Source of the DNA: a bacterium
GTDB taxonomy: Bacteria > Patescibacteriota > Minisyncoccia > Phycocordibacterales > UBA6899
Direction of reading: 5' to 3'
Length of the DNA: 37,718 nt
Assembly: GCA_043758815.1 (NCBI GenBank)
Contig: JAYVMS010000009.1
Span: forward strand, 1 to 37,718
The notes beneath the pieces were generated by a model. It ran no database searches and was not told where the DNA came from. It saw nothing but the letters and a program-made list of their open reading frames with translations. The position numbers were made by a program, and so were the translations under genes. Positions 281 through 23,335 of the stretch are shown one piece after another (positions within the stretch are counted from its first letter, which is position 1; the number at the start of each line of letters is the position of its first letter).

Positions 281-329
281 CAAAAAACACCAGTTATGCA
301 ACCAACGAATTGGCTCACATAAATGGTGT
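281..329 (-). terminator. Intrinsic terminator of the giant gene
   Basis: On the minus strand, just after the TAA at 340-338: ACACCATTTATG..CCAA TTCG TTGG..CATAACTGGTGT. The outer stem pairs 11 of 12 positions and there is a 4-bp inner stem. TTTTTTG follows. Confidence 0.6.
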
Positions 330-337
330 TTTCAGCT

Positions 338-3300
338 TTAGCGCTTGTGTGTCTCCATGTACATCAGGAGTTCGCCCTCAGCATCCGGTGAAACAACAAC
401 CTTCGTTTCGAGGTGATGCGCTTCGAGTATCTTGTACATTGCAAGCGGGCGTAGCTCTCCCTTTGCAAGCTTCATCGCATTTATTATTTCCATTTTTGCG
501 GCAGCAATATCTGTACTTAATCCTGGATTCATCTTGGTGCCCTGCTCAAGCTCAAGGAGATTAGTGAGGGTGAATGATTCGTCAGGTGTCGGAGTGTGCT
601 TAATGTACGCAGCAATTTCAGCGACACTGTGTGCGCGCTGAATACTTGCCTCAGGTGACACTACTACTCTGGGGGCGCTTTCTATTGCAGCGGCTTTGCT
701 GGCACTGCTCATTGCTTCAGGAGGCACGGAAACCGCGGGAGCCACTTCTGGGATTCGAATCTGCGCATCAAGCGCATTATGCTGATGCAGGATATGCATC
801 ATCTGCTCTGTTGTAAGCGGCACACCATTCGTAGCACGCATTTCTTGACCCAAATGAGCGACAGCCTCGTTGATATTATTCTTTGCCGCATCAGTGTCTG
901 CGAGTAAGGACAGACCCTTTATACTATGGAGCACGTTTGACTCAGTGGCGGATATTGAGCGGCCGAGCGTACTCTCGATAGATGCAGTATCACTTGCCGA
1001 AAGGGTGCCGACAAACTCACGCACTTCCCCGAAGCCTGTGGGGCTGTGTCCTGACATTACTGCCTCACTAGCGACTCCTCCCCCTCCACTCGTCTCCCCT
1101 AAATGCTGTGCGTGATTGATAAGACTCTCGCCGTTTATATTTATGAGTTTTTCCGAACCCAAGAGATCGTTCAATTTGTCTATTTGTATACTTTGCCCTG
1201 GGACAATGTGATTGGGGTCAATGATGCCTATTGCTTTCATGTCAACCAGAGTCAGCTTACTCAGTAGATTCTGTATCGCATTCTCTTGCTGTGGGGGTGT
1301 CAGATCCCTCATGACCGCAATGTGATCTTTGATGATGTGGGTGAGATTATCTCCTACTTTGACCACATATGCTGCGGTGGCACTTTCTTGACCTGAGTTC
1401 GCTGTCTCATTCTCGAGAGCCGCAGCTCCTTCTTGAATGCTTGTCGGCACATTAGTATTTTGAAGAATGTCGGCGATCTTTGCATCCATTGCCTCGCGAG
1501 TCATAGCAAGAGTTTTTGCAATTGCATCTTTTCCACTTTCATCAGCCGCCATGTACTCTTCAAACCCCTTCGCGAGCGCTGCTTGCTGTGGACCCACAAT
1601 TTCTTGCGGTAAGCCGCTCGTATTTCCTTGACCTCGTATTGCTTCACCGACTGCTCTTATCCCTGATGGGTTATATACAGCAGCATGGGTTGAAGATTTT
1701 TCTGCAAGAATTCCCGTACCGACGCCACCCCCAAAGTGCAGTAATTCTTTTGCTCCTTGAACTATGGCACCACCTGCAAGTGCGAAGCCACCACGAATCA
1801 ACCCTGACTTCACCGCCATCTTTCTGACTTCGCTCTTCCTTACCTCTTCGATAGTTTCTTGGCGGTTACCGACGATACGATCCATTTCTGCTTCGAGTGC
1901 ACCCTTGTCTACCGCGGTCTCTATCTCACCTTTGGACATTGCCTGGATGAAGCTTAAGCGGTTGGCTATGGTGTTGCCTTTGCGCGCGTCATCCTCTAGA
2001 AGCGATGAACCGCCGAAGTTTATCATGCCGCGTTCGTTCTTTTCTTTCATGAGCGCGACAGTTTGTGCAATCTTTTTTTCGAGAAGTTCACGCTCTGTAT
2101 CATCAGTCGACTGTTCAAGTTTGTTGGTTAAACGATCGACGCGCTTCACAAAGAAATTCGCATCGGTGAACTCGCGTATCTTTCTTGTTTCAACATGTTC
2201 GATAACTTTTTCTCCTGTCTGCTCATCGATAATCTCTTTGCCATGCTCATCTTTTTTAAATACTGCGTATTCTACTTCCTCGCGCACATCCTCTTCGCTC
2301 ATACGTCCATCGGCACGCTTTGCTTTCATCAGCTTCTTGCCTTCTGCCTGACCTATTCCGTAGCCGACTCCACCGCCTACCATCGCGATAACGGGAAGCA
2401 TAACACCGCCAGAGATTGCGACCGCGGCGGCGCGAGCTGCAGCACCATAGACCATAAAGCTCCCCTTTTTCTTCCAAAATTCCTTTGCAGCCACCCCGAT
2501 AACTGATTGATCCTCAACCTTAAGGAGAGCATCTTCTGCATTAGGATGCGTATTGAAAAGCTGATCGAGCTGCATTCGCTCATCCACCTTGTTCATCTCA
2601 AGCATTGCGGACTGGACTGGATCCTTATCTCCGCGTTCGGCAAATTTTGCCTCATAGGTTGCAAGCATGCTACTGCGCGCGGCATCATATTCAGCCTTCG
2701 CACCATTGTATTCGCGGCGCGTCTGTGAAAATCGTTCTAATAATCCGGGCTTTGCTGTCTCATAGCCCCACTCATGCGGGAACTTTGCATACGTATCTGC
2801 AGCTGCATTAAAGCGCTCCATAGCAGCGAGATTTTCCGGAGTAAGATGACCGGCATCAAGGTGGCCGAATATATCTTCGCGTGAAACATATTTAATACTG
2901 AGCTCGCCGTTTGCTTTAGTTTCTACTTCGGGACCGGCTTTGGCTACCTTTGTGAGCTCACCGAGTGCGGCGAGATTCTTCGCAAGGATCTTTATACGCT
3001 TGGGATCATTTGCGTCCCCCTCGCGTTGTTTTGCTGCAAGTTCTTTTTCTATCTGCGCCACACGGATATCAGGCGACATGCCGAGCGTTATTGCTGAAAG
3101 TCCAATACGCTTCCATATGCTTTTCTTTGCCCACTCTTCTTTCTGAAGCACTGCTGCATCCTTCTTCACATCCTCGAGCGCCATGGACTCGAGATTTTTT
3201 AGCGCAAGCAATTGCTGTCCGGAGGAAAGGTTTCTGAAGCCTGGAATACTCTTTATCATCTCTTCATCGATACCAAACTTCTCTTTGAATTGCTCTGCTA

Positions 3301-6300
3301 CAACAGGCTCAGGCATTGGCGCAGAGTCTTCTATTAAGCGCTCGGCAACTTTCGCCCAGCGATTGAGAGGTTCGTGTTGAAAAATACTGATGATTGCTTC
3401 TTTGTCGAGGCCATGCTCACTCAATCTCGAAAATGCGGCAATTCCCTGCTCAATCTGCTCGTTATATTCATTTCCCAGTACTTCGTTCTTTGACACCTCG
3501 AGAATGCTTAATAAACGCTTAGCAAATTCAGGAGCTTGGACCTTTACTATCGAGGTGATCATGTCTGCTGCGCTGCGTTCATCTTTGAGGTAGTCATAGA
3601 GACCGCCCTCCTCTTCGCTTTTGGTGAGAGATTTATATATTGCCTTGGGGTCACGACCCTCTTTCATGTATGCCAAGATCTCATCTGCAGCTTTCTGGTC
3701 GGCAATAACTCCCCTTTCGTTGCGTAATGCGCGTGACGCATACAGCGAGATTCTTTCCAACTCCCTTTCGAACATCATTGTCGCTTTTTCTTTTTCTTTT
3801 GCACTTGCACCTCCGTTCATGATGGCAAACTCTTCTTTTGCGCTTTGTATTGCATCTCTTGCCACTGCTTCGTTCATCGATCTATCAAAATTCGCTACTT
3901 GGCCCTCAAGAAGCACCGCATTAAATGCGTGCTGCTCCTCATGTTCGTAGATACCTTTTGCGCCACCTTCAAATGCTCTGCCCTGTGCTCGCTCAGCTAT
4001 GACTGCACCCCGAAGCTCGGGGATATACGTTGCAACACCCGCACACCCACCTGAGTGTTTCGCATCATCGATATCCTTCTGCTCTAGACTTTCAGTATTC
4101 TTACCTTTGCCTATATAGACTGCTGCATAATCATTATCATCGTGGATGCGGAAATACAGTGTCATTGGGCCTTTTATAACCTCTACTTTCCCTGCGGGCA
4201 CCATGCCGAAGCAGGCAGTAAAGAGCGCTTCGGGTGTATTGTATTTTTCAAAATTTTCTTCAACGGCAAGATGGATCTTGTTGTATTTGTCGTACGCTTT
4301 CTCCGCTATTGCAAACTGTTCTTTGGTTGGATGGAACTCTTTTGTCAGTTCAGTAAATTGCGCAAGAAAATCTTCTTTTGAGACATCAGAATTTGCTTTT
4401 ATTTGGCTGATCAATTCCTTTTGTGCATTTCCAATTCCTATCTTTTGTGCGGCGAGTCGTTCGCGATATGCAAGCAAGAGTGCTTTACGTTCTGCCTTAG
4501 GGGCTTTCAGAATGTTTTGCAGTTCTATTTCAGGATTCCACGCATCAGGGAGCTCTTTAACCATTACTTCTCCTTCGCCCAACACATCCTCAAGCGGAAG
4601 CTCGAGATCGAGTTTGGGGTCAGACTCAAGTTCAGGCTTCGGTGCTTCGGGGACTTTGGGGGCTCCCACATCGGCTTCGATCTTATCATCGTTTTCAGAA
4701 ACGACGAGCGAGGCGAGTTTCGTAAGAAGAATAGGGATCAAAACATTTTCGAGATAGGCCGGATGCCCGGTCGCATTCGCCTGAGAATCAGCTCTCCAAA
4801 TATCTGCCTCTCTTCTGCTTTCAGCAATATATCTTTCGATCGCCACTCTCTCCGTTTCTCCGGACTCCCTCGCGACCACTATCCGGTTAGCAATATCAGC
4901 TTCCGCCCGTCTCCTGGCCTCAGGGTCAACATTAAGTTTCACCTCTTCTTTTGGCGTATCTCCTCGTTCGAGTGCTGCGATCTTCTCGGCAATAATAGCA
5001 ATAAGCACTAATTCGAGGTAATCCGCATGACCACTTTCGCCCGCATTCTTCCATGCTTCCACCTCCATCTTGCTCTCCGCTAGGTATTTTTCGAGTGCTG
5101 TTTTTTCTGTCTCCCCGCTCTCAACTGAAACTTTTACCCTGTGAGCAATGTCCTCTTCGGCTTTTACTTTTAGCGTTTCGTATTCGGGATGTACTCGCTT
5201 GGGAGTTTTGGGAACTGTGATGATCTCATCCGGACCCCCAACCGGAACTTCGGGTGCTTCGATGGTGTGCTCAATAGGCAGAAGCTGCGGGTCTTCCGTC
5301 GCTTCATTTTTAAAATTGCGCGGAACCAAGGATTCAAGCTCCCATGCAGGAGCGTTGATATCCATGGCTTGCTCCTCAAGCGCATTGTCATAATCACTCA
5401 GTTTTGCTGTTGGTACTACTAAAGAGGGGGTTTTAAAAGTTTCTGACTCTATGAGGACCTGATCTGGTGGGAGTTGCGGGACATCAGGTGCAGCCGGAAG
5501 AGTGGATTCTATTGAAGTTTCCATGACTTCGTCAGTGGAATTGTTTATTAAATTGTTGTCCGGTAAATTAAGTGCATCGAGTTCAGCCTGTGCCCGCGCA
5601 GCATTTTGTTCTAATTTATCTAAATAACCGGTTTTGGGTTCGATGACATCAGGAAGTGTGTCTGCAGTTGCTTGCGCTGAATCAACAACCGGCTCGGGGG
5701 GATGAGAAAGAGCCACTGTAAGGGCACTGTTTCTTCGATATTTCGCCACCACAGGAACCTCGGCAAACTCTGTTAGCCATTTTTCTGGAACGGTGGCGCC
5801 ATGACCACTCTCTATTGCCTCAAGTGTGTTTTCGAGTGCACCGCGAGTTTTCTTTTCGAGACTGTAGAGTAATGCGCCCCTCTCTCTCCTCTGCCACTCT
5901 TCTTTTGCTAGACCGCTCAGCTTGGGGTTTGTATCAGACATCATACTATCTACTTCTTCCCAATTAGCGTCAATTAACTTTTTTTGTATTGCAGCGATAT
6001 CGTTCTGATCGACTGAAGCCTCTTGTGCGAGAGTTCCCATTCCAAAAGCAGCAATCGCCGCATCAGCATCCGATTGTTTCTTGACTGGAATTTCATCTTG
6101 CATCAGTTGCTCCTTGATCATGGCAAGCCCTGCGCCGATGTCGCTCACATCGATGCCTCGTGCGGCAAGTGTCTGTCGGATCTCGTCGCCAGAAAAGACC
6201 GCAAGATCGGGGGTACCGACCGCAGCTGCGATATCTTTCCAATTTGTCTTTCCTTCTGCTTTTTTTCGCAGCATTTGATTGGCTTCCCACTCGCGCGCAG

Positions 6301-7165
6301 AAAGCTCGCGCATGATGCGCTCAGCTGCCCACATGTTCACATTATATTTATCGAGCACAGCTTTATCACCTACGCGTATTGCCTGCTGCAACTCTTCATC
6401 AAGACTCTTAAAATCACTTACGACGACCTCTATGTTTCCGCCGATCTCAAGATCTGCCTTATTCAAATAGGCCTTTGCTTCTACTTCACCACCTAAGAGC
6501 CACTTGAGCTGGCTTTCGATGCTACGTTTTCGTTTGAGTTCTTCGGGATTAAGAATACGCTCGTCCGTGCCAAGTGCCATAAGCTCTGCCTCGAGTTCGT
6601 CGGCACGCTTAGTGAGACCGGGCAAAACTTCATCCCCCCTTCTTCTTCCCTCGAGCTCTCGCACTGCCCGCTGTCTTTCTCTGTCAACGTAATCGATCAT
6701 GTTGATCCTACTGATCAACATATCAGTTTTATTTAGCGGAGAGACTTCTTCTTTTTCAGCAGGCGATGAAACAGCTTCGATCGCATCCATGGGTGCTACT
6801 TGCGAAGAGAAATGACCGCCTGCATCTATAGGCGATTCAGTGGTCGACTCAACCAGAGTAGGAAGAGTCAGTGTTTGATCTTCTACTTGTTGTTGTTCAC
6901 CAGCCTGTTGCTCGAGTGGAGCGATATTTCCCACTGCAGGTGTGTAGTTCATCGCCGCTTTTATGCTCTCATATTCCCCCAAGGTCGAGATGATTGCATG
7001 GTTTTCTTGTTCAAATTGATGTTTTTCACTAAGTAGGCGAAGCTTCTCACGCGCATCATCCTCCAGCATGTCACTCTCGAGAATCTCTCTACTGAGAGCC
7101 TCAATTTCTTTAGCAACTCTTACCGTGAATTCCTCTTCTGTCTCTGGTGGATTGCGCTCTGTCAT
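338..7165 (-). CDS. Giant 2275-aa multidomain membrane-associated protein of unknown function
   Basis: A single uninterrupted 6.8-kb ORF with an ATG start. Features seen: an acidic coiled-coil-like N-terminus, a tandem ~70-aa repeat, an HEEQH motif, two Gly/Ala-rich hydrophobic hairpins, and a LysM-like segment. It has its own consensus promoter and terminator. Confidence 0.9.
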   Translation of the reverse strand: MTERNPPETEEEFTVRVAKEIEALSREILESDMLEDDAREKLRLLSEKHQFEQENHAIISTLGEYESIKAAMNYTPAVGNIAPLEQQAGEQQQVEDQTLTLPTLVESTTESPIDAGGHFSSQVAPMDAIEAVSSPAEKEEVSPLNKTDMLISRINMIDYVDRERQRAVRELEGRRRGDEVLPGLTKRADELEAELMALGTDERILNPEELKRKRSIESQLKWLLGGEVEAKAYLNKADLEIGGNIEVVVSDFKSLDEELQQAIRVGDKAVLDKYNVNMWAAERIMRELSAREWEANQMLRKKAEGKTNWKDIAAAVGTPDLAVFSGDEIRQTLAARGIDVSDIGAGLAMIKEQLMQDEIPVKKQSDADAAIAAFGMGTLAQEASVDQNDIAAIQKKLIDANWEEVDSMMSDTNPKLSGLAKEEWQRRERGALLYSLEKKTRGALENTLEAIESGHGATVPEKWLTEFAEVPVVAKYRRNSALTVALSHPPEPVVDSAQATADTLPDVIEPKTGYLDKLEQNAARAQAELDALNLPDNNLINNSTDEVMETSIESTLPAAPDVPQLPPDQVLIESETFKTPSLVVPTAKLSDYDNALEEQAMDINAPAWELESLVPRNFKNEATEDPQLLPIEHTIEAPEVPVGGPDEIITVPKTPKRVHPEYETLKVKAEEDIAHRVKVSVESGETEKTALEKYLAESKMEVEAWKNAGESGHADYLELVLIAIIAEKIAALERGDTPKEEVKLNVDPEARRRAEADIANRIVVARESGETERVAIERYIAESRREADIWRADSQANATGHPAYLENVLIPILLTKLASLVVSENDDKIEADVGAPKVPEAPKPELESDPKLDLELPLEDVLGEGEVMVKELPDAWNPEIELQNILKAPKAERKALLLAYRERLAAQKIGIGNAQKELISQIKANSDVSKEDFLAQFTELTKEFHPTKEQFAIAEKAYDKYNKIHLAVEENFEKYNTPEALFTACFGMVPAGKVEVIKGPMTLYFRIHDDNDYAAVYIGKGKNTESLEQKDIDDAKHSGGCAGVATYIPELRGAVIAERAQGRAFEGGAKGIYEHEEQHAFNAVLLEGQVANFDRSMNEAVARDAIQSAKEEFAIMNGGASAKEKEKATMMFERELERISLYASRALRNERGVIADQKAADEILAYMKEGRDPKAIYKSLTKSEEEGGLYDYLKDERSAADMITSIVKVQAPEFAKRLLSILEVSKNEVLGNEYNEQIEQGIAAFSRLSEHGLDKEAIISIFQHEPLNRWAKVAERLIEDSAPMPEPVVAEQFKEKFGIDEEMIKSIPGFRNLSSGQQLLALKNLESMALEDVKKDAAVLQKEEWAKKSIWKRIGLSAITLGMSPDIRVAQIEKELAAKQREGDANDPKRIKILAKNLAALGELTKVAKAGPEVETKANGELSIKYVSREDIFGHLDAGHLTPENLAAMERFNAAADTYAKFPHEWGYETAKPGLLERFSQTRREYNGAKAEYDAARSSMLATYEAKFAERGDKDPVQSAMLEMNKVDERMQLDQLFNTHPNAEDALLKVEDQSVIGVAAKEFWKKKGSFMVYGAAARAAAVAISGGVMLPVIAMVGGGVGYGIGQAEGKKLMKAKRADGRMSEEDVREEVEYAVFKKDEHGKEIIDEQTGEKVIEHVETRKIREFTDANFFVKRVDRLTNKLEQSTDDTERELLEKKIAQTVALMKEKNERGMINFGGSSLLEDDARKGNTIANRLSFIQAMSKGEIETAVDKGALEAEMDRIVGNRQETIEEVRKSEVRKMAVKSGLIRGGFALAGGAIVQGAKELLHFGGGVGTGILAEKSSTHAAVYNPSGIRAVGEAIRGQGNTSGLPQEIVGPQQAALAKGFEEYMAADESGKDAIAKTLAMTREAMDAKIADILQNTNVPTSIQEGAAALENETANSGQESATAAYVVKVGDNLTHIIKDHIAVMRDLTPPQQENAIQNLLSKLTLVDMKAIGIIDPNHIVPGQSIQIDKLNDLLGSEKLININGESLINHAQHLGETSGGGGVASEAVMSGHSPTGFGEVREFVGTLSASDTASIESTLGRSISATESNVLHSIKGLSLLADTDAAKNNINEAVAHLGQEMRATNGVPLTTEQMMHILHQHNALDAQIRIPEVAPAVSVPPEAMSSASKAAAIESAPRVVVSPEASIQRAHSVAEIAAYIKHTPTPDESFTLTNLLELEQGTKMNPGLSTDIAAAKMEIINAMKLAKGELRPLAMYKILEAHHLETKVVVSPDAEGELLMYMETHKR
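1175..1372 (-). other. LysM-like (peptidoglycan-binding-like) segment of the giant protein
   Basis: YVVKVGDNLTHIIKDH...IVPGQSIQIDKL matches the LysM ends (YxVKxGDxLxxI ... PGQxLxI). The interior is about 20 aa longer than canonical LysM. Confidence 0.45.
1700..1810 (-). other. Second hydrophobic Gly/Ala-rich membrane segment of the giant protein
   Basis: GLIRGGFALAGGAIVQGAKELLHFGGGVGTGILA. Confidence 0.4.
2350..2465 (-). other. First hydrophobic membrane hairpin of the giant protein
   Basis: SFMVYGAAARAAAVAISGGVMLPVIAMVGGGVGYGIG is flanked by Lys-rich stretches (KKKG... / ...EGKKLMKAKR). Confidence 0.55.
3929..3943 (-). other. HExxH (HEEQH) candidate zinc-metallopeptidase motif in the giant protein
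   Basis: The context is GAKGIYEHEEQHAFNAVLLEG. It is preceded by a beta-rich stretch (GKVEVIKGPMTLYFRIHDDNDYAAVYIGKG), as in zincin folds. Confidence 0.4.
4701..5160 (-). repeat. Two tandem ~70-aa protein repeats inside the giant gene
   Basis: AEEDIAHRVKVSVESGETEKTALEKYLAESKMEVEAWKNAGESGHADYLELVLIAIIAEKIAAL versus AEADIANRIVVARESGETERVAIERYIAESRREADIWRADSQANATGHPAYLENVLIPILLTKLASL. By eye these are roughly 45% identical. Confidence 0.7.
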
Positions 7166-7173
7166 ATATTTAA

Positions 7174-7202
7174 ATTATATCAATAATAATAAGAAATGTC
7201 AA
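7174..7202 (-). promoter_or_regulatory. Consensus sigma70-type promoter of the giant gene, implying a leaderless mRNA
   Basis: The minus strand reads TTGACA (7202-7197), a 17-nt spacer, then TGATATAAT (-10 hexamer at 7179-7174). Only 8 nt separate the -10 box from the ATG at 7165, and there is no SD. Confidence 0.6.
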
Positions 7203-7324
7203 GCTATTGCATGACGATAGTTGAAGTTAATTTAAGTTTAATTATACATTAAAACAGCCAATACAAAATAATTTATCGGTGATCACTGACTCTAGCTAAA
7301 AATCCTGACGTCGAGTATGGCGGA

Positions 7325-10300
7325 CTACTTATCAGTATCTGATGTATCACCAAGCTGCGAACGGGCGAACATTTTCGCAAACGGACTTTCTTCTTCTTTG
7401 ATTGCGGGTGCTTGCGCTTGTGGTAGAGTAGAAGTAGGTTGCTGGGATAGAGCAGATTGTGGTGGGCTTACAAATACCTGAGTGATCTGAGGCAAAAGCG
7501 GAGGTTGTGGTGTTTCGAGTACTTGAGTTTGCACTGGGGGGGCGACCGGAGGTTGTGAGGCAACATTCGCAAAGGCTTGCGCGAATTGATGCTGCGGCGC
7601 GACCTGAGGAGCTTGCGCCATCTGTTGTGTTGGGGGTAATACTAGTGTTGCTTGCAGTGGTGCTGCCACTTGAGACTGTACTTGAGTTACTGGGCGTGAC
7701 TGAGGAGGCGGTGTGGGCGCAGCTTGCTGAGGAGCCGCTGGCTCGGGACGCGCAAGGTATTTTTTCATGACTGCGTCGTCGACAGTTGCGCGGTCTTTGC
7801 CGAACTTGAGATATGAAAGATTTTTTATTTGCTCGACCACTTCTGGAGTGCCTGTGGGCGGCGGCATGGTTTCAATATTAAACGGCGGTACTGGTTTGCC
7901 GTTAATAAGCATCTTGAGATACGCATTATGATTGTCTATCTTCATGATGTCTGAGGCCTTGAAGATCGGGGCGAACTGCGATTCAAGAAATTGCGCATCT
8001 TCGGCGCCAACACGAAATACTGCCATCGAGCCAACGTTGCCGAACACCGCATCCTTTATACCCGGATCAAGCTGGGCGATGAATTGATGCGCGACATTTA
8101 GCGAGAGCCCATATTTGCGCGCCTCTGAAAGTATCGACGATATGGAGTCGGTCGAGATATTCTGGAATTCATCAATATAGAGATAAAAGTCAGGAAGTAT
8201 TTTCCCTATCGCATCAACGCGGGAGAGTGCGGCCATAAGGATCTTGCCGACCAACACCAGTCCGATAAGATTGGAGTTAATTTCACCGAGCTTACCTTTG
8301 GCGAGATTCACAAGAATGATCTTCTTGTTGTCCATGATATCGCGGAAGTTGAATGATGACTTTTCCTGCGCAATGATTGGACGCATCACGTCATTTGAAA
8401 GAAATATATCAAACTTGTTTGTAATGTATGGCACCATGTTAGCGAGCGAGGACTCCCCTGTCGATTTGCCAGCGATATCGCGCCAAAACTGCACCACGAT
8501 AGGATTTTTGCAACGTGAAAGTTTCAGATTCCTGAATGACACATCGACAAGTACGCGCGGGATCTCGAGCATGGTGTTGCCGGTCTCGGGATCTTCCATC
8601 ACCAAGAGTGTCGAGTAGCGGAAGTATTGTTCGAATGCGGGGCCCATCGACTCTGGCGTCGAAGAATAGAGTTTTTTGAAAATAGAAAGCATTTCATTGA
8701 CGACGAAAATTTTCTGCTCGGGCTTTGTGATATCGTACTCGAGCATATTGAGCGCAAATGGCCGTGCTGTATATGACGGATCAAAATAAATGACGTCATC
8801 GATGCGTTCCTTAGGGATATTGGCCAAAATATCTTGCACGTCAGAACCGTGCGGATCAATGAAGCACACCCCCTTACCAGCCTTGATGTCCTCGACAATC
8901 ATATTCTTGAGGAGCGTGGTCTTACCGGTACCGGTCTGTCCGATGACATAGAGATGTCGCACGCGATCCTGCTTGGTCATGCGAATCTCATGTGTCTCAC
9001 CGCGATATTTATTAACCCCGAGCAAAGTTCCCTCATGCGGAAGATCAGAAGGCGCTGGCGCAGACGACGCCTTCACGGTCTTGAGCTGTGGCGCATCTTT
9101 CTGCGACATTCCTGCAGGAAGGTGATAAAGCGTGGCAAGCTCCTTCGTGTTGAACACCAGCGCCTCGTTATCATCGACTTCGCGATAAGTGAAGTTATGC
9201 AAGAGCGTCGACAAGCGTGCCTTATCCGCATGTGTGAACTTTATGCCGTTTGCTTGTGGTCGTGCGAATTGATTAAATGCTGATTCGATGGAAAGTCGTA
9301 TCGCCTCAGCACGCTCTCGCGTTGGAGCAGAGACGACAAGGCGGAGATTGGCGATCAAAAGTGGGGATTGGATCTTTTCTTCCATCAGGGCAGTAGCTTT
9401 CTGTGCGGAATCAGCTTCTTTCGCGTCAAGCGTACTGTCTTTCTTTTGTCCTTTTACTTGTGTATTGAAAAACTCACTGAAGGTCTTCACGATAGCTCCT
9501 CCTGCAGAGAGTGGGATATCGGTCGCGCGTTTTACCGGCACTCCCTGCTTTATCTGCCCTAACGCATGCTTGACCTTATTGACCACACGGTCAGAGTCAG
9601 GAGAGATTATCAACTGTAGCGCCGCACCCTCACCATCGCGTTCAATCTTGGTAAACGAATTGAGAATAACGGCGAAAGGATCCTGCTCACTATCATCAGA
9701 CATCTTGATGGGATAAACAAAGCGATTGGTCACCTCCGCATATGAGCCAATTGACGCACCGAATTCATTGAAGATATTGTAGTCCCCCGGATGCTCCTCT
9801 ATCTTTGCTGTGGGAAACGCGCCCAAAATCTGCTTCACAAAAAGATCCTTCATGTGCTCCTCAACTGCAATATAAAACACAATATCATTTGAGAAATTTG
9901 AAAGCACGAGCTCAAGAGAAAAGTGTCCGTATTGTGACTTCGATGCACCCTCAAGCGGTATCATGCCAACATAGAAGCGCTCCATTTCTAATATGACGTC
10001 TTTAAAAGACAGCACCTTCTCCCCTTCCTGCATTCCTGCGAACGGAAGCGTGACCTCATACACAACCATATGCAAAAGCATCGACAGATCGCGCTCTTTT
10101 TCGAGTCCAGGAACAATTGCTCCTGTTCGTACATACTCGACAAGTACGCGATGAAAATCATCTTCAATGTGCGGATTGCCAAGGGCTTGAGACAACTTAA
10201 TAGCAGAAAGCACGCCTTTCTCCGCAAGTATCTTGTAGATCTCACGCATCTTTTCGCGATGAGGAAGTGAGCCGATATGCTCAACCACAGTTTCGAATTG

Positions 10301-10531
10301 AGGATTATCTACGATGAGGTGTTCCTCCAGCTTGGTTTCGGGCATCTGCTTTCCGTATTCGGTGATGGTCGCAGAAATTGCCGCCTCAGTCTTATTCGCG
10401 GGAGCAGTCTGCTCTTGCCACATCGCACTCTCTTTGTGTGCGACCTGCTCACGCAAATACTTCAACTCTTCTTCGGGAGAAGAAAATTTTTGCGATTCAT
10501 TATATTCTCTGGGAGCTCCTCCATTTTCCAT
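7325..10531 (-). CDS. VirD4/TraD-like (type IV coupling protein family) P-loop ATPase. It is soluble, with an unknown N-terminal domain and a P/Q-rich C-terminal tail.
   Basis: Walker A is HLYVIGQTGTGKTTLL (8918-8941). Walker B is DFYLYIDEFQN (8161-8190). ARKYGLSLNVAHQFIAQL is typical of TraD/VirD4 coupling proteins. No TM helices are present. The last ~140 aa are P/Q/A-rich low complexity. Confidence 0.8.
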   Translation of the reverse strand: MENGGAPREYNESQKFSSPEEELKYLREQVAHKESAMWQEQTAPANKTEAAISATITEYGKQMPETKLEEHLIVDNPQFETVVEHIGSLPHREKMREIYKILAEKGVLSAIKLSQALGNPHIEDDFHRVLVEYVRTGAIVPGLEKERDLSMLLHMVVYEVTLPFAGMQEGEKVLSFKDVILEMERFYVGMIPLEGASKSQYGHFSLELVLSNFSNDIVFYIAVEEHMKDLFVKQILGAFPTAKIEEHPGDYNIFNEFGASIGSYAEVTNRFVYPIKMSDDSEQDPFAVILNSFTKIERDGEGAALQLIISPDSDRVVNKVKHALGQIKQGVPVKRATDIPLSAGGAIVKTFSEFFNTQVKGQKKDSTLDAKEADSAQKATALMEEKIQSPLLIANLRLVVSAPTRERAEAIRLSIESAFNQFARPQANGIKFTHADKARLSTLLHNFTYREVDDNEALVFNTKELATLYHLPAGMSQKDAPQLKTVKASSAPAPSDLPHEGTLLGVNKYRGETHEIRMTKQDRVRHLYVIGQTGTGKTTLLKNMIVEDIKAGKGVCFIDPHGSDVQDILANIPKERIDDVIYFDPSYTARPFALNMLEYDITKPEQKIFVVNEMLSIFKKLYSSTPESMGPAFEQYFRYSTLLVMEDPETGNTMLEIPRVLVDVSFRNLKLSRCKNPIVVQFWRDIAGKSTGESSLANMVPYITNKFDIFLSNDVMRPIIAQEKSSFNFRDIMDNKKIILVNLAKGKLGEINSNLIGLVLVGKILMAALSRVDAIGKILPDFYLYIDEFQNISTDSISSILSEARKYGLSLNVAHQFIAQLDPGIKDAVFGNVGSMAVFRVGAEDAQFLESQFAPIFKASDIMKIDNHNAYLKMLINGKPVPPFNIETMPPPTGTPEVVEQIKNLSYLKFGKDRATVDDAVMKKYLARPEPAAPQQAAPTPPPQSRPVTQVQSQVAAPLQATLVLPPTQQMAQAPQVAPQHQFAQAFANVASQPPVAPPVQTQVLETPQPPLLPQITQVFVSPPQSALSQQPTSTLPQAQAPAIKEEESPFAKMFARSQLGDTSDTDK

Positions 10532-10650
10532 GCTAGTTATAGTATATCAGGAGAAAAACACGGAGGATATACACGTGTAGGGATACCTCTTGAGCTTATC
10601 GCTTTTCACTGTTTGGGGTCATGCGACTGATGCGTAAAATCGGTAATTGC

Positions 10651-12258
10651 CTAAGAATATATCTCGTCTTTCTTTTCCTTGAGTACTGAGGAGAAGGTGT
10701 CGAAGAATTGCAATATAAGCTTGAGTGGGATCTCGATGAAGAAGTCCATGAAGATGGCGATGAGATTCAGGCGTTCGAAGCGCACCACAAGCCATCTTCC
10801 GACTGAGACTATTGGGAGCATGAGTAACTCTGCGAGCGAGCGCAGGAAACCTTCGCGTGCGCCCGTAAGCTCCATTCTGCGGGCCGCATAACGTATACGG
10901 AATCCAAAATAAAGCACGAGCGCGAGGAAGACGAGGAAGAATCCGATGTCGATGTAATGAAATCCAAGACTGAGAAGTGTCCGCGTTATCCATGCAAATG
11001 TTGCTCCAAGGACTGCTACATAGAGCCCAAGTGCGATATCGGAAATGATACCAAAACGCTTTAGCGTAAGGGTAATTTGCGGAAGTGGTCCTCCATAGAC
11101 AATATCTTTAACCAAAAGAGTGAGACGATCGGTGTTTTGCTTGGATGGCAAAGCGAGACCCGAGGTGAGCATGAAGAGCATTGCCGGATGAAAGAAGATA
11201 TTCGTCGCGACTGCGACATAGTTGATGCTTGCCTTCCACACTGACAAATAGAGCGACTCAACTACGACAGCGAGCAGTGTCTTGGTGGCAAAGATATAAA
11301 TGATGGCTTGCCATGCTCGACGTGATGCGCGCGAAACATCTTGTTTGTATTTTTCGACGATCACCGCTCGAACGCGTGTTTCAAAATCCGCACGATTGGT
11401 GATGAGTGTTTCGACACCTGTATCATAATGCTCGAGCAGTTCGTAAAGCACCGAGACCGCGATGGAGTAATTGCGCAGGCGTGGCTGTAGGCGTTTGCCA
11501 AGGTCATGCTCAATAATGCTCTGTGCGTGTGTGATGAACTCTGGAAACACGGCAGCGAGCTGTATAAGTGTTTCAGTATCCGCATTTTCCCAATTGGGAT
11601 AGTGCACAAGCCATAATTTATATAAAAGTAAGGCACTATCCGCCGCAAAGAGTGACCGCCAAGCAGTGGCGTAGACGACAAGCTCGCGTGAAGCATTATC
11701 AAGTGTGATCCCTGTTGTAACGAGGGTGTCGTCGGTAATGCGTGCAAGCAGTCGCACCGATGCCTCTTCATTGTGTGTGAGATAGAGTCGGTCTTCGATA
11801 GCACCGGCCACGATATCGAGGAGATATTTGCGCAACTGCAAGAATTCGGGAACGGAAACACTCGCTTCGATGGCACTCGAAAGCAGAAGAAACGCTGATA
11901 TCGTTCGGCGGACATCTTCTTCGCGATGGCGGGTGACGCTTGCCTTTGAGAGGTAGTGCCCGCGATAGAGATCTTGCAAAAGTCCTTGCGTGATGACCTT
12001 CGGGTCATCAGAGAACCACATAATACGTTTTGCGATCCGCCTTATGGCATAACGCCGCAAAAAATGCTCTTCTTTGTTGTCGACCGCATTGCGGATCTTT
12101 TCATAGACTATTCCAGCCTGATCAGAAATCTGACTCAAAAAAAACGGCGCACTTTCTTCGCTTCGCTCGCGTGACTCATCTTCGATCTCGGTTGCGCGAA
12201 GAAAGGCAAGTACGTCCGACATTGCAGATCCGATCTCGATTTTAGACTCTGGTACCAT
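10651..12258 (-). CDS. Polytopic membrane protein of unknown function, with a ~330-aa helical soluble N-domain and at least 5 C-terminal TM helices
   Basis: Long ORF. The C-terminal hydrophobic segments include AIIYIFATKTLLAVVVESLYL, IALGLYVAVLGATFAWI and IGFFLVFLALVLYFGF. The start is ambiguous. The ATG at 12258 is preceded by TATAAT plus 7 nt. The alternative GTG at 12309 overlaps the map stop (GTGA). Confidence 0.75.
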   Translation of the reverse strand: MVPESKIEIGSAMSDVLAFLRATEIEDESRERSEESAPFFLSQISDQAGIVYEKIRNAVDNKEEHFLRRYAIRRIAKRIMWFSDDPKVITQGLLQDLYRGHYLSKASVTRHREEDVRRTISAFLLLSSAIEASVSVPEFLQLRKYLLDIVAGAIEDRLYLTHNEEASVRLLARITDDTLVTTGITLDNASRELVVYATAWRSLFAADSALLLYKLWLVHYPNWENADTETLIQLAAVFPEFITHAQSIIEHDLGKRLQPRLRNYSIAVSVLYELLEHYDTGVETLITNRADFETRVRAVIVEKYKQDVSRASRRAWQAIIYIFATKTLLAVVVESLYLSVWKASINYVAVATNIFFHPAMLFMLTSGLALPSKQNTDRLTLLVKDIVYGGPLPQITLTLKRFGIISDIALGLYVAVLGATFAWITRTLLSLGFHYIDIGFFLVFLALVLYFGFRIRYAARRMELTGAREGFLRSLAELLMLPIVSVGRWLVVRFERLNLIAIFMDFFIEIPLKLILQFFDTFSSVLKEKKDEIYS

Positions 12259-12305
12259 CTCTTCTATTATAACGTGCTTTTCGCGGGAGTACTCACCGCT
12301 AAAGA

Positions 12306-13067
12306 TCACTGCGTAACGATCTCAGAGCCTTTATCGGTAATGACAATAGTGTGTTCAAAATGTGCAGACAGAGAGCCGTCTTCTGTAACAATGGTATAGC
12401 CGTCAGGCATCATGCGTATATCTTCGGAGCCCAGCATGAACATTGGCTCTATGGCGATAACCATCCCCGCTTTCAATATCGGGCCATTACCTTTTTTGCC
12501 ATAATTGGGGACGTAAGGGTCTTCGTGTACCTTATGCCCTACTCCATGACCGCCAAGTTCTCGCACGAGACCATAACCCTTCGATAGTCCGATACGTTCA
12601 ATCGCAGCACCAATATCACCGATGTGCCCTCCTGCGCGCGCAGCTTTAATACCAGCATAAAGGGCTCGCTCTGTCTCAGCAATGAGCGTCTTCAGCTGTT
12701 CGGGGACATCACCCACAGCTACGGTGAGTGCTGCGTCGGTGATCATGCCCTTATGCAGAACCCCAAGATCGATACTTACCAGATCACCGTCTTTGATGAC
12801 TCTGTCACTTGGGATGCCGTGCACGATCTCATCGTTTATCGACACGCAAAGCGATGCAGGAAATGGCTGGCGTGCGCCATGTGGAGTGTAGTTTAAAAAT
12901 GGCGGAGTATCCCCCCCTTCTCGAATAAGACGCTCGGCCACCTCATCCAAATATTTGGTTGTGACTCCCACTTTTATTTCTGCTTTTACCGCATGGAGAA
13001 TACGACCCAAGCGCTTTCCTGACTCGCGCAAGGCTACGATCTCTTCCGCAGTCTTTAATTTTGCCAT
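12306..13067 (-). CDS. map: Methionine aminopeptidase type I
   Basis: MAKLKTAEEIVALRESGKRL..., plus the metal-ligand context DLVSIDLG, GHGVGHKVHE and IAIEPM. It follows adk, as in other bacteria. Confidence 0.95.
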   Translation of the reverse strand: MAKLKTAEEIVALRESGKRLGRILHAVKAEIKVGVTTKYLDEVAERLIREGGDTPPFLNYTPHGARQPFPASLCVSINDEIVHGIPSDRVIKDGDLVSIDLGVLHKGMITDAALTVAVGDVPEQLKTLIAETERALYAGIKAARAGGHIGDIGAAIERIGLSKGYGLVRELGGHGVGHKVHEDPYVPNYGKKGNGPILKAGMVIAIEPMFMLGSEDIRMMPDGYTIVTEDGSLSAHFEHTIVITDKGSEIVTQ

Positions 13068-13293: not shown

Positions 13294-13899
13294 TCACTCA
13301 CCGAAGACATTGGCAATGATATCCCTCTGCACCTCCTCAATTGACCCCTCCCCATTTATCTCAATGAAATCATAGTCACGGTCACGGCGGTAATGATTGA
13401 TAGTTGGAAGCACGTCGTGATCGAACCAATCGAGTCTGCGATTGATACTTTGCTCGGTGTCGTCAGTGCGTCCCTCTTTCTCGGCGCGTGCCATAAGATG
13501 CTTGAATGACCACTCGCGATGTACCTTGAGATAGATAACTGTTGGCTGTTCACGTTTAAAGAACTTCATTGCAATATCAAGGTGATGCGCTTCAGAAAGA
13601 GTACGCGGCGCACCGTCTAAGATGATGTGTTCATTGCCGGTGAGATTCTTAACAAAGATATCTGACCAAAGCCACATCGCAAGAAATGACGGTTGTAACC
13701 CTCCATGCTCCTGCACTTCGCGTGCAATATGCGAGGCGTAGGTATTACCCTTGATGAACTCCCTGAAGTGCTCACCGGTTTGCACATAAAATATGGGGAT
13801 TTCCGGAGTTTTTTTCTTAAAGTAGTCTTTTACCAGAGCCACTTGAGTGCCCTTGCCTGACCCTGAAGCACCGATAAATATAAAAGTTTCTTTATGCAT
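13294..13899 (-). CDS. adk: Adenylate kinase family nucleoside-monophosphate kinase (short-lid form)
   Basis: P-loop FIGASGSGKGTQ, ILDGAPRT, and the syntenic position between secY and map. Confidence 0.85.
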   Translation of the reverse strand: MHKETFIFIGASGSGKGTQVALVKDYFKKKTPEIPIFYVQTGEHFREFIKGNTYASHIAREVQEHGGLQPSFLAMWLWSDIFVKNLTGNEHIILDGAPRTLSEAHHLDIAMKFFKREQPTVIYLKVHREWSFKHLMARAEKEGRTDDTEQSINRRLDWFDHDVLPTINHYRRDRDYDFIEINGEGSIEEVQRDIIANVFGE

Positions 13900-13950
13900 G
13901 TGGAGAGTATAACCACATATCTCGATAATTCAAAATTACTCTACGAAAGA

Positions 13951-13979
13951 TTGACAGTGCACATTATCTTATATATAGT
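13951..13979 (+). promoter_or_regulatory. Near-consensus promoter of the plus-strand orphan gene
   Basis: TTGACA (13951-13956), a 17-nt spacer, then TATAGT (13974-13979). It lies ~25 nt upstream of an AAAGGAG SD and the ATG at 14005. Confidence 0.5.
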
Positions 13980-14004
13980 TTTCCGAGAAACAAAAGGAGT
14001 TGCA

Positions 14005-14382
14005 ATGCCCAAACGCTCAGTCTACGACAAAACCGCTGATCTCATCGCACAAGAACCAAGCGAAGTACTCCGTGCTGTCCTTGAACGGCCCTACTGGCCA
14101 AGACAGCTCGATGTCGGCATCTCCTACACCCGACTCGGTGACGACAACCGTGGTGAGGTGACTGTTACCATAGCACCTGACGCTGACGCTTGGATAACGG
14201 TGTTCTCAAGGCTCGACCCAGAAGAGTGCGGTCTTTCACACCGCTTCCGCTCTGGCTTCGGTGGTGGTGAGAGCGAGCGTGTCCGCAATGCACTGTTGGC
14301 GCTTGCGCTTGCTATTAAGCTCGACAATCGCGAGCGACCACAGGATCATAGACGCAAGATCCCACCTGATGCTCCGAAATAA
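14005..14382 (+). CDS. Orphan hypothetical protein (125 aa) inserted antisense between secY and adk
   Basis: Internal ATG of track ORF 13894..14382, with SD AAAGGAG 5 nt upstream. It has its own promoter and its own terminator. I recognise no family. Confidence 0.65.
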   Translation: MPKRSVYDKTADLIAQEPSEVLRAVLERPYWPRQLDVGISYTRLGDDNRGEVTVTIAPDADAWITVFSRLDPEECGLSHRFRSGFGGGESERVRNALLALALAIKLDNRERPQDHRRKIPPDAPK

Positions 14383-14631: not shown

Positions 14632-15906
14632 CTAGTACTCGCGCATTGAGAGCTGTGCATCCATCTTCTTGATGAGATCAAGCACCACTGAGACAACAAT
14701 GAGCAGTGCGGTACCGCCGATAGCGAGCTTGGTGTCGCCGGTGATAGATTGCATAGCAAGTGGCAAGACTGCAACGACTGAGAGGAAGAGTGCGCCGGCA
14801 AATGTCGTGCGCGTAAGTATCTTTGCGAGATGCTCTGCGGTCGCATTACCTGGGCGAACTCCCGGAATGAACGCACCTGACTTCTGTAGATTCGTAGCAA
14901 TTGCTTCAGGATCGAAAGTCACTGCGGTGTAGAAGTAGGTGAAGAGGAAGACAAGGATAAAGTAGAAACCTGAGTAGACCCAGCCTTGCGTGAAGTGAAG
15001 CTTTAAGAATTCTCCAATGTGCTGCGCGGTTGGATTTGCAAGTCCAGAAAGAAAACCACCGATAAGCTGAGGGAAAAGCAATATAGAAAGTGCGAAGATG
15101 ATAGGAATGACACCCGCCTGATTAACACGAAGTGGGAGGTAGGTTGAAACTCCGCCGTACATCTTTCCACCGCGCACGCGCTTGGCGTAGGTGATCGGTA
15201 CGGGGCGCTCAGCCTCGGTCATGACAATAACACCTGCGACAATGGCTACTGCTGCGAGTACGAATGCGAGATAAGTAGGGATTTCCGCCTGATTAAAGCC
15301 TGATGCCAAGATCTGCGATGTTGCGGTGGGGATACGTGAAACGATACCTGCGAAGATGATAAGCGAGACACCGTTTCCTACGCCGAACTCAGAGATGAGT
15401 TCACCGAGCCACATAAGGAAGACCGAGCCAGCTGTGACAATTATGACGTTTGAGAACATTTGAAACGGATTGAGCGTACCCAAAACACCTTGGTGGGCCA
15501 AGAGAATGAGAAGACTGTATCCCTGAAGCAATGCCAGGGGTATGGTAAGCAGACGAGAGTATTGCGTGAATTTCTTGCGACCAAGCTCGCCTTCCTCGTG
15601 ATACATCGCCTTAAGCTTAGGCGACATCATAGTGAGTAATTGCATGATGATAGAACCCGTAATGTAAGGACCCACACCGAGCATAACTATAGAGAGGTTA
15701 GAAAGGCCTGAACCAGAAAATACGTTCAAAAGTCCGAGGAATTGGTTGTTCTTGAAGAATTGATCGAGCGCAGCGTGGTCAACTCCCGGAATAGGGACTG
15801 CAGCGGCGATACGAAATACCACGAGTGCACCTATGACAAAGAAGATGCGATTGCGAAGCATCGAATCACTCATCATCAGTCGTAATTTGTAGAAAAAATT
15901 GTTCAT
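14632..15906 (-). CDS. secY: Preprotein translocase subunit SecY
   Basis: A 424-aa polytopic protein with typical SecY sequence (GVGPYITGSIIMQLL, GVIPIIFA), directly after rplO. Confidence 0.95.
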   Translation of the reverse strand: MNNFFYKLRLMMSDSMLRNRIFFVIGALVVFRIAAAVPIPGVDHAALDQFFKNNQFLGLLNVFSGSGLSNLSIVMLGVGPYITGSIIMQLLTMMSPKLKAMYHEEGELGRKKFTQYSRLLTIPLALLQGYSLLILLAHQGVLGTLNPFQMFSNVIIVTAGSVFLMWLGELISEFGVGNGVSLIIFAGIVSRIPTATSQILASGFNQAEIPTYLAFVLAAVAIVAGVIVMTEAERPVPITYAKRVRGGKMYGGVSTYLPLRVNQAGVIPIIFALSILLFPQLIGGFLSGLANPTAQHIGEFLKLHFTQGWVYSGFYFILVFLFTYFYTAVTFDPEAIATNLQKSGAFIPGVRPGNATAEHLAKILTRTTFAGALFLSVVAVLPLAMQSITGDTKLAIGGTALLIVVSVVLDLIKKMDAQLSMREY

Positions 15907-18130: not shown

Positions 18131-18538
18131 TTACCAGATCTTGCAGATTATCTCTCCTCCGACGTGCTCCTTGCGAGCCTCAACATCAGAAAGTATCCCT
18201 TTGGGGGTCGATAGGACCATAAGTCCGTGACCTTGATTGACGGGACGGATCTCCTTAGCACCAATATACATACGGCGAGATGGGCGTGAGATACGTTCTG
18301 TACCCCTCACACGTGGGATGCGAGGTGCGTCATAGCAGATACCTACTTCAAGCACACGCATTGAGGTCTTGCCCTTGCGGATCTTCTTTGTTACGTAGGT
18401 GACATAGCCCTCCTTTACAAGAAGATTGGCAATGCGCAACTTTACGTCAGAAAACGGCACAAGTGTGGTCTTCTTTCCTGCAGCACCAGCGTTTCTGATG
18501 CGCATAAGCATGTCTGCTATAGGGTCTGTGATTACCAT
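18131..18538 (-). CDS. rpsH: 30S ribosomal protein S8
   Basis: [14 protein letters not shown]-terminal motif. Its start overlaps the rpsN stop (ATGGTAA). Confidence 0.95.
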
Positions 18539-18714
18539 GATGATTTCGTAATACCGGGGATCTTACCCTCGTTTGCTAATTCTCGGAAACATATACGGCA
18601 GAGATCGAAATCACGGATATAGCCATGCTTTCGTCCGCATTTGAAGCAGCGATTTGTAGCCCGAGTTGAAAACTTGGGATTTAACTGCCTTGCAATAGTA
18701 GATTTTTTTGCCAT
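18532..18714 (-). CDS. rpsN: 30S ribosomal protein S14, zinc-binding type Z
   Basis: A 60-aa protein with [23 protein letters not shown] (CxxC...CxxC). Confidence 0.9.
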
Positions 18715-20272: not shown

Positions 20273-20417
20273 ATGCATCTCCTTATAAAGCGTGGATGAA
20301 AAATGACAAATATTCTCTAGCTAGAATACATCAAAATTAGAAAAAGTCAATACTACTACGTGCATGGTTCATCTCTACAAAAAACACCCCTCAATTCGCG
20401 GTGTTTCTTTCTGGTCT

Positions 20418-20537
20418 TTAATGAAAAAATACGTAGACGAACGAAAGGTTGATGACGATAGCAGCGAGCAAAGCAAGGAGGCTCACCTTCTTGTGGTTTG
20501 CAAATGAAGAAGCGGAAGACTTGGACTCTTCTACCAT
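20418..20537 (-). CDS. Possible 39-aa single-TM micro-protein (below the track's length cut-off)
   Basis: GGAG followed by 6 nt and the ATG. The translation is MVEESKSSASSFANHKKVSLLALLAAIVINLSFVYVFFH*, a polar head plus one hydrophobic helix. It lies downstream of the MFS gene. Confidence 0.35.
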   Translation of the reverse strand: MVEESKSSASSFANHKKVSLLALLAAIVINLSFVYVFFH

Positions 20538-20608
20538 GATGAACTCCAGATTGAGGAAATACCTGTGCGCATACTACTGACCCCACTTAAACGAGTCAAG
20601 CGGATAGT

Positions 20609-21838: not shown

Positions 21839-21840
21839 AG

Positions 21841-23271: not shown

Positions 23272-23335
23272 AGATTATTATGCTACACAATTTATGTGCT
23301 TTGGAAAAGCGTCGGACTAAATTGATACGCTTATC

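Follow-up and report, generated by a model that had tools for sequence, protein, structure and literature searches.

Our analysis of a 37,718-nucleotide stretch of bacterial DNA (GenBank assembly GCA_043758815.1, contig JAYVMS010000009.1, positions 1 to 37,718; GTDB lineage Patescibacteriota, Minisyncoccia, Phycocordibacterales, UBA6899; hereafter the window) identifies a conserved chromosomal ATPase with plasmid relatives encoded beside conjugation genes. Its gene (7325-10531, minus strand, 1068 amino acids, aa) lies between the gene for a membrane protein (10651-12309 if started at a GTG, 552 aa, or 10651-12258 if started at an ATG, 535 aa) and the gene for a giant protein (338-7165, 2275 aa), both likewise on the minus strand. 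An earlier interpretation of the letters alone (the sequence-only reading) had placed these three genes 3' of map on one strand. All three open reading frames (ORFs) are indeed present on the minus strand, and all are real genes, each with conserved homologues. The identity of the ATPase, its ancestry and its status as a chromosomal gene outside any integrated conjugative element (ICE) are well supported. For the locus as a whole we favour, at a little short of an even chance, a reading in which a conserved motor derived from the type IV coupling proteins (T4CPs) has a clade-specific giant client or partner, the membrane protein being a late neighbour.

The ATPase is soluble and T4CP-like. It belongs to the FtsK-HerA superfamily, carries DUF8128 as its N-domain, is no FtsK orthologue and is probably no HerA orthologue either. 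From the N-terminus it comprises a helical extension (residues ~20-140; 10112..10474, minus strand as for all parts of this gene), the DUF8128 alpha/beta N-domain (residues ~150-500; 9032..10084), a P-loop motor domain (residues ~505-925; 7757..9019) with an all-helical insert (~593-711), and a P/Q/A-rich C-terminal tail (residues 936-1068; 7328..7726). The first two parts resolve the roughly 520 N-terminal residues that had been called unrecognisable. DUF8128 (PF26449) was taken from a precomputed annotation of the window ATPase and most of its homologues; a literature search for DUF8128 returned no paper that mentions the name. Walker A (GQTGTGKT, residues 531-538), Walker B (YIDEFQN, 785-791), ARKYG (804-808) and HQ (815-816), motifs recognised at first sight, are invariant in 49 homologues, and judged by these motifs the ATPase is catalytically intact. 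Its N-terminal 500 residues contain no hydrophobic segment, in keeping with the proposed lack of a membrane anchor, and the sole hydrophobic segment flagged in the protein (around residue 751) is a conserved helix within the ATPase domain. Among the 133 residues of the tail are 25 Q, 24 P and 19 A, a composition from which the tail is probably disordered.

An AlphaFold2 (AF2) model of residues 1-930 has a predicted local distance difference test score (pLDDT) of 78.7. In the DUF8128 region strands alternate with helices, mostly at pLDDT 80-95, and the helices at 593-711 sit between Walker A and Walker B. Foldseek matched the model to VirB4, HerA and TrwB. TrwB superposes with a TM-score of 0.61-0.65 (normalised to TrwB) at a root-mean-square deviation of ~5 A over ~430 columns, and it is also the only PDB sequence match, both for the single ATPase and for a profile of 49 sequences. 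In Pfam, TrwB_AAD_bind reached 26.6 bits (cut-off 20.5) and TraG-D_C 21.9 bits, just under its cut-off of 22. The top NCBIfam models were TraD families (1.6e-11), far under their curated cut-offs: TIGR03743 scored 43.4 bits against 366 and TIGR03754 32.5 against 647. FtsK_SpoIIIE stayed at 17 bits, under its cut-off of 24 and confined to the P-loop region, and DUF87 passed narrowly (23.8 bits, cut-off 23.2) over just 38 residues. With TraD and TrwB as best profiles and TrwB as the only PDB match, the suggestion of an orphan T4CP-like ATPase stands.

A word-indexed search scored 464 homologues of the ATPase, many of them sharing over 50% identity across 85% of their length, and in a scan of one genome per species at least 600 GTDB species carry one; among the matches listed, all records are Patescibacteria-type metagenome-assembled genomes (MAGs). 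Relatives were compared in 80 GTDB loci fetched with flanks of up to 10 kb per side. Using tblastn with the neighbour genes of the window, and counting soluble-form loci with sufficient flank, map was found 5' of the ATPase in 23 of 43 loci (14 within 600 bp) and ndk 3' of it in 20 of 44 (16 within 600 bp). The gaps vary in size (0-7 kb from map to the ATPase, 0-2 kb from the ATPase to ndk) and hold assorted contents. Around a homologue of 52% identity, located on a contig of 354 kb, the gene order is secY-x-adk-map-ATPase-138aa-ndk-67aa-betaCASP. The window follows the same plan: the minus strand, on which all its sizeable genes lie, reads rpsN, rpsH, rplF, rplR, rpsE, rplO, secY (14632-15906), adk (13294-13899), map (12306-13067) and then the three genes, and the parent contig (82.9 kb) continues beyond the giant gene with ndk, a DUF2238 membrane protein and a beta-CASP RNase. 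The sequence-only reading had the three genes replace the expected continuation of the ribosomal superoperon after map. Since map-ATPase-ndk recurs in about half of the soluble-form loci sampled from the class, it is a widespread, ancestral arrangement in this lineage and no substitution peculiar to the window.

The surroundings contain nothing of a mobile element. A Pfam scan found no integrase, relaxase or type IV secretion system (T4SS) families, either within the window or across the next 3 kb of the parent contig, the place where canonical T4SS or relaxase genes would have been expected had the module been part of an ordinary ICE. T4SS or relaxase genes were also absent from the related locus L001, from the flanks of the 80 related loci and from the vicinity of the membrane-anchored forms described below. 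No tRNA gene was found in the window, and its GC content is even (0.43-0.51). As no T4SS, relaxase or integrase genes lie nearby, the locus is not an ICE, and the earlier view of a chromosomally fixed region distinct from conjugative elements holds. The ATPase is thus a chromosomal gene of Paceibacteria-type Patescibacteria, often placed between map and ndk and apart from T4SS and relaxase genes. A PADLOC match of the ATPase to 'mad8' (E 6e-15) was judged to stem from motor-domain resemblance only and was rejected as a sign of a defence system because of the housekeeping synteny.

A shorter version of the ATPase (~800-840 aa) occurs in 17 of the 80 loci. It begins with a hydrophobic helix of ~25 residues that leads directly into the DUF8128 region, and immediately 5' of every such membrane-anchored ATPase a gene for a protein of ~130-156 aa lies on the same strand. 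Examples of this split form are found among loci L062-L085, as in L064 (small gene 9477-9914, ATPase 9908-12382) and L067 (9384-9854 and 9878-12409). A hidden Markov model (HMM) built from nine of the small proteins found, without iteration, 16 small proteins (E 1e-11 to 1e-44) and aligned collinearly with residues ~20-135 of many soluble-form ATPases (E 1e-7 to 1e-3); the window ATPase itself was matched in the iterated search only. Since the small protein is homologous to the N-terminus of the soluble form, the window ATPase is the small protein fused to the motor, with the membrane helix lost. Sister lineages keep the separate small gene and the membrane-anchored ATPase. The membrane-anchored forms have no T4SS neighbours and neither map nor ndk nearby, and are surrounded by housekeeping genes. 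The occurrence of split and fused forms predicts physical contact between the small protein and the membrane-anchored ATPase.

The family reaches beyond Patescibacteria. The PHROGs family phrog_5156 matches ATPase residues 200-924 (E 1e-78), and tblastn found 278 plasmid records with a homologue, mostly from Bacillaceae, Streptomyces and archaea. In Bacillus phage G the homologue is gp156, which adjoins the VirB4-like gp155. On the Shouchella clausii plasmid NZ_CP012476.1 the product of a DUF87-annotated gene (21837-24488) is 24% identical to ATPase residues 205-903 (E 3e-32). Directly after this gene comes Replic_Relax, with TcpC, TcpE and AAA_10 (VirB4-like) genes beyond. With such neighbours, the DUF8128-plus-motor build holds the position of the coupling ATPase in conjugation loci of monoderms, and the ATPase family is therefore common to these loci and to Patescibacteria chromosomes. 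Such an ancestry agrees with the derivation of the Patescibacteria T4SS from monoderm conjugation machinery that is put forward by Quinonero-Coronel et al. 2025 (PMC12102498). That paper counts 5,713 VirD4-type homologues across 2,918 genomes of Patescibacteria, with only 148 near virB4, and raises exaptation.

These relatives, in company with conjugation genes on Bacillaceae plasmids and in phage G, and the strong phrog_5156 match are what could be said for reading the region itself as an integrated conjugative element or as a plasmid or phage remnant. We consider this hardly credible: integrase, relaxase, VirB4, VirB6, tRNA and any repeat boundary are missing, GC content is even, and the synteny is kept among housekeeping genes in distant species. 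An origin of the locus as ICE, prophage or plasmid was accordingly rejected on its housekeeping flanks, even GC and lack of mobile genes.

The sequence-only reading had joined the three genes into one module. Co-localisation of the trio fails in related genomes: only the ATPase is widely conserved, and five arrangements were found. These are map-ATPase-ndk; map-membrane-ATPase-ndk (L099, L100); map-ATPase-giant(s)-ndk (L088, L089); map-membrane-ATPase-giant-ndk (the window and L087); and one with the giant gene 5' of the ATPase (L041). L086 has the same order as the window on a contig that ends before map and ndk, and in L097 the contig is cut within the membrane gene.

What recurs is the ATPase together with a conserved core of the giant protein (residues 1280-2060; 986..3328, minus strand), which is common to the large ATPase-neighbour proteins of relatives. 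Searches with jackhmmer and BLASTP located this core in a 2514-aa protein adjoining the ATPase in L087, in two proteins beside it in L086 (1173 aa and 2274 aa) and in L089 (1421 aa and 2024 aa), split over 568 aa and 591 aa beside it in L088, and in a 1401-aa protein 5' of a 46%-identical ATPase in L041. A scan of JGI metagenomes was then baited with a three-sequence alignment of the giant core, which avoids the bias from sampling around the ATPase. The core was found between the ATPase and ndk in five loci and, in a sixth cut at its 5' end, just 5' of ndk. In every locus where it was found the giant core adjoined the ATPase, and tandem duplicates occur. The C-terminal tail of the ATPase follows the same distribution: with a giant-core neighbour it measures 39-408 aa in 10 of 11 distinct ATPases (13 of 14 loci), and without one 0-47 residues, in most cases below 13. 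Neither tail nor giant protein is present in L099 and L100, whose ATPases are 57% identical. The pairing of ATPase and giant protein would thus be the only part of the proposed module that keeps some support as a functional unit.

In the favoured reading, the ATPase would be a hexameric, membrane-proximal motor for substrate recognition and translocation, which may serve a chromosomal Patescibacteria T4SS that would be encoded elsewhere in the genome; the T4SS cluster that is essential in Southlakia has no recognisable coupling protein (PMC10633639, Wang et al.). In the clade of the window the ATPase would have gained its P/Q-rich C-terminal tail, and one or more fast-evolving giant proteins adjoin it. 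The giant protein, presumably made from its own strong promoter, may serve the motor as a client, or as a partner embedded in the membrane, that is specific to this clade and recognised through the tail, and the pairing of tail and giant protein predicts contact between the two proteins. Bolder, and in our judgement unlikely, is the version in which this anchorless, T4CP-derived motor uses its new tail to drive the dedicated giant protein into or across the envelope, so that the two would form a minimal, chromosomally fixed host-contact export system, a motor and its single cargo co-evolving in one Paceibacteria clade.

Several observations weigh against the favoured reading. L041 has a giant-core neighbour and an ATPase without tail. 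The adjacency of the giant protein and its correlation with the tail come largely from one clade and are uncorrected for phylogeny, so that common descent, without selection, may account for both. A giant or membrane-protein neighbour is missing from most genomes that encode the ATPase, and the core role of the ATPase therefore cannot depend on these proteins. Each of the three genes has a leaderless-type promoter of its own, and the giant protein has neither a signal peptide nor a recognised secretion signal. In Southlakia, according to PMC12102498, the t4cp homologue is not essential for epibiotic growth.

The main rival is a domesticated DNA pump with incidental neighbours, i.e. a housekeeping DNA translocase of T4CP descent, active in segregation, DNA uptake or repair, next to unrelated genes in permissive gaps. 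Folds of the TrwB type move DNA, the model matches HerA and VirB4 just as well in fold, and an ATPase highly conserved amid housekeeping genes in hundreds of species, mostly without either neighbour, suits such a role, as do the variable gaps on both sides with their assorted contents and the separate promoters of the three genes. However, FtsK_SpoIIIE and HerA profiles are under cut-off or marginal, the giant core stands beside the ATPase in every locus where it was found, including one with a rearranged order, and the tail appears together with the giant protein. On balance we regard the DNA translocase as doubtful.

The anticipated build of the membrane protein was borne out, with a helical soluble N-terminal half of ~300 aa followed by 5-6 hydrophobic helices where at least five had been proposed; homologues and gene callers favour the ATG at 12258 (535 aa) over the GTG at 12309 that gives the 552-aa form. 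The AF2 model is confident (pLDDT 81.5, predicted TM-score 0.79) and all-helical. It has no significant fold match in PDB or BFVD, and the sequence has no match in Pfam, NCBIfam, PADLOC, PHROGs or PDB. A word-indexed search returned ~50 clusters that are 42-92% identical, on contigs with the same lengths as ATPase-bearing ones, and a profile search at least 1000 clusters at 50% identity, at least 563 of them with E <1e-30; the 150 clusters listed are nearly all ~510-600 aa with full-length matches. Cluster names in the family read 'hypothetical protein' apart from one aquifer MAG label. Near the ATPase, family HMMs found the membrane protein only in the window, L086 and L087, with a truncated copy in L097; in L099 and L100 it stands in the order map-membrane-ATPase-ndk and the giant protein is absent. 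Two distant members of the family lie near mraZ-rsmH and near a TP_methylase gene, respectively. The membrane protein is thus an uncharacterised family of its own, not a partner that travels with the ATPase, and it adjoins the ATPase in one clade only. Going by adjacency alone, it could be a membrane dock for the anchorless ATPase.

That possible supply of the missing anchor is among the points for taking all three genes as one dedicated apparatus for envelope translocation or host contact, together with their co-oriented, adjacent position between map and a strong terminator and the presence of the trio in the window, L087 and L097, with L086 in the same order. Yet the trio is a minority arrangement, since pairwise combinations and the ATPase alone also occur; the membrane family is far larger than this locus, and the two distant members looked up stand in unrelated contexts; and no channel-forming component was recognised. 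A single three-gene apparatus is therefore improbable, and we retain the favoured reading of a motor with a giant client or partner.

The giant protein is acidic (isoelectric point 4.9), rich in A, E, L and K, and carries an internal repeat at residues ~665-830. The word-indexed search found three homologues besides itself. Where ATPases are 85-88% identical, the C-terminal two-thirds of the giant proteins are 59-82% and the N-terminal third 49-60% identical, so that the N-terminal third is the fastest-diverging part. Its core consists of an N-terminal F.E.FGI...GF..LS.GQQ motif, a Gly/Ala segment with KRADGRMSEE, INFGG, a second hydrophobic segment and a LysM-like segment. The membrane hairpins, LysM-like segment and HExxH motif of the sequence-only reading were recovered in part. 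Two Gly/Ala-rich hydrophobic segments are kept in relatives, one at residues ~1568-1606 (2348..2464, minus strand), with the conserved KRADGRMSEE after it, and one at ~1785-1815 (1721..1813, minus strand). The putative zinc motif, HEEQH (residues 1075-1079; 3929..3943, minus strand), reads HEEQHA in four of five close homologues, and Pfam scans of the giant protein gave no peptidase family match for it. The LysM-like segment (residues 1933-1997; 1175..1369, minus strand), with the pattern 'Y.V..GDN(L/F)T.I...GQ.I', is conserved in five homologues. It resembles LysM in its end motifs alone and is ~20 residues longer, and Pfam LysM gave no match at E<=5 to the slice 1801-2275, so that the likeness stays at the level of motifs.

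The whole protein matched nothing in Pfam, NCBIfam, PADLOC or PHROGs. Cut into seven overlapping slices of 400-475 aa, it gave noise-level coiled-coil matches only in Pfam, and the core found nothing below E 0.09 among PDB sequences. A literature search for giant proteins of Patescibacteria returned nothing relevant. In the Lloydbacteria-like relative L087 (14237-21781) the variable N-terminal region of the 2514-aa giant-core protein contains a PP2C phosphatase domain, from which it would follow that the variable region swaps enzymatic modules between lineages.

Transcription signals were examined on the minus strand. Ahead of the giant gene stands a TG-extended sigma-70 promoter (7174..7202; TTGACA-17-TATAAT), which ends 8 nucleotides (nt) before the ATG and would give a leaderless mRNA; no other sequence within 16 kb matches at 12/12 positions. 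Near-consensus promoters lie 6-16 nt before the giant genes of eight related loci, and a -10 box also stands 7-9 nt ahead of the ATG of the ATPase gene and of the membrane gene. The -10-like hexamers, defined by at least 5/6 matches to TATAAT, are located at 7174-7179 (giant), 10541-10546 (ATPase) and 12266-12271 (membrane), and likewise 5' of adk, rpsN, glyS, a gene for a 639-aa protein, recO and ileS. Altogether, nine of 25 gene starts in the window have such a hexamer ending 5-9 nt before the start codon and no Shine-Dalgarno sequence, against 1.9% of other ATGs (binomial p 5e-10), a pattern in the sequence that suggests leaderless mRNAs are widespread in the organism. An intrinsic terminator follows the giant gene (282..334; dG -25.5 kcal/mol, z -5.2, a stem and then U6). 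None that is convincing was found between ATPase and giant gene (z +1.4), and read-through is therefore possible despite the separate promoters. A second TG-extended -10-like motif (TGnTACAAT or TGTATAAT) lies ~60-70 nt 5' of the giant genes, often right after a T-run, in the window (7205-7260, minus strand) and in L086, L087, L088, L089, L093, L095 and L097; a tandem promoter and the 3' limit of the ATPase mRNA are both conceivable explanations.

Further observations concern the flanks. The rpsN gene (18532-18714, minus strand), immediately 5' of rpsH, encodes a 60-aa zinc-ribbon S14. At 19097-25255 (minus strand), where rplE, rplX and rplN are expected, lie genes for an M50-peptidase-like membrane protein, a major facilitator superfamily (MFS) transporter, glyS and the 639-aa protein, which has no Pfam match; the spc cluster is thus broken there in this genome. 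The 730-bp gap between secY and adk contains a 162-aa ORF on the opposite strand (13894-14382, plus strand), also without a Pfam match, and an opposite-strand gene is likewise called in this gap in L001 and in the distant L004. In several distant relatives (L010, L018, L020, L021, L027 and L032) the gap between adk and map holds a recurrent soluble protein of ~565-590 aa, usually with a ~228-aa protein alongside.

Patescibacteria depend on host cells, and in the only species studied by genetics so far their T4SS proved essential. Elsewhere in their genomes, as stated in PMC12102498, thousands of T4CP homologues have no assigned role. Orphan T4CP homologues of Patescibacteria are thus already published; the present analysis adds their domain build, their constant place on the chromosome, the fusion/fission pair and the association of giant protein and tail. 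The orphan T4CP genes can now be viewed as a coherent DUF8128-plus-motor family with a fixed address, roots in monoderm conjugation and, in one clade, a candidate client. If the ATPase is instead a DNA pump with a housekeeping role, it would clearly exemplify how a component of conjugation can be taken over for core functions of the cell.

Among known systems, SftA and SpoIIIE of Bacillus subtilis are the soluble and the membrane-anchored version of one motor family, and EssC of the type VII secretion system (T7SS) is a motor whose variable C-terminus fits variable adjoining cargo genes. Both resemble the present case by analogy only, as they belong to other ATPase subfamilies whose homology with the window ATPase may not go beyond the superfamily. 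VirB4 (TrwK) gave the top Foldseek E-values over ~900 columns and, like the window ATPase, has an alpha/beta N-domain followed by a motor; its global TM-score, however, is only 0.24-0.31, and TIGR00929 reached E 0.006 (14.8 bits against a cut-off of 643). HerA gave fold matches at E-values similar to those of TrwB and superposes poorly on the window ATPase as a whole. With the T4CPs proper (TrwB of R388, VirD4, TraD) the window ATPase has in common the P-loop motor with its helical insert, TraG-D_C and ARKYG/HQ; in contrast to them it has no N-terminal membrane anchor, carries an extra DUF8128 domain of ~350 aa and a fused helical domain of ~140 aa, and is unlinked to relaxase or T4SS genes. 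The orphan VirD4-type homologues of Patescibacteria (PMC12102498), situated away from virB4 and proposed as exapted, are probably the same set of genes; the accessible part of that paper gives no account of the DUF8128 build, the place between map and ndk, the existence of separate and fused versions or the adjoining giant genes. The ATPase of the Bacillaceae plasmids, phage G gp156 and phrog_5156 are homologous to the window ATPase over the DUF8128-like region and the motor. These plasmid and phage relatives adjoin conjugation or VirB4-like genes, whereas the window ATPase adjoins housekeeping genes.

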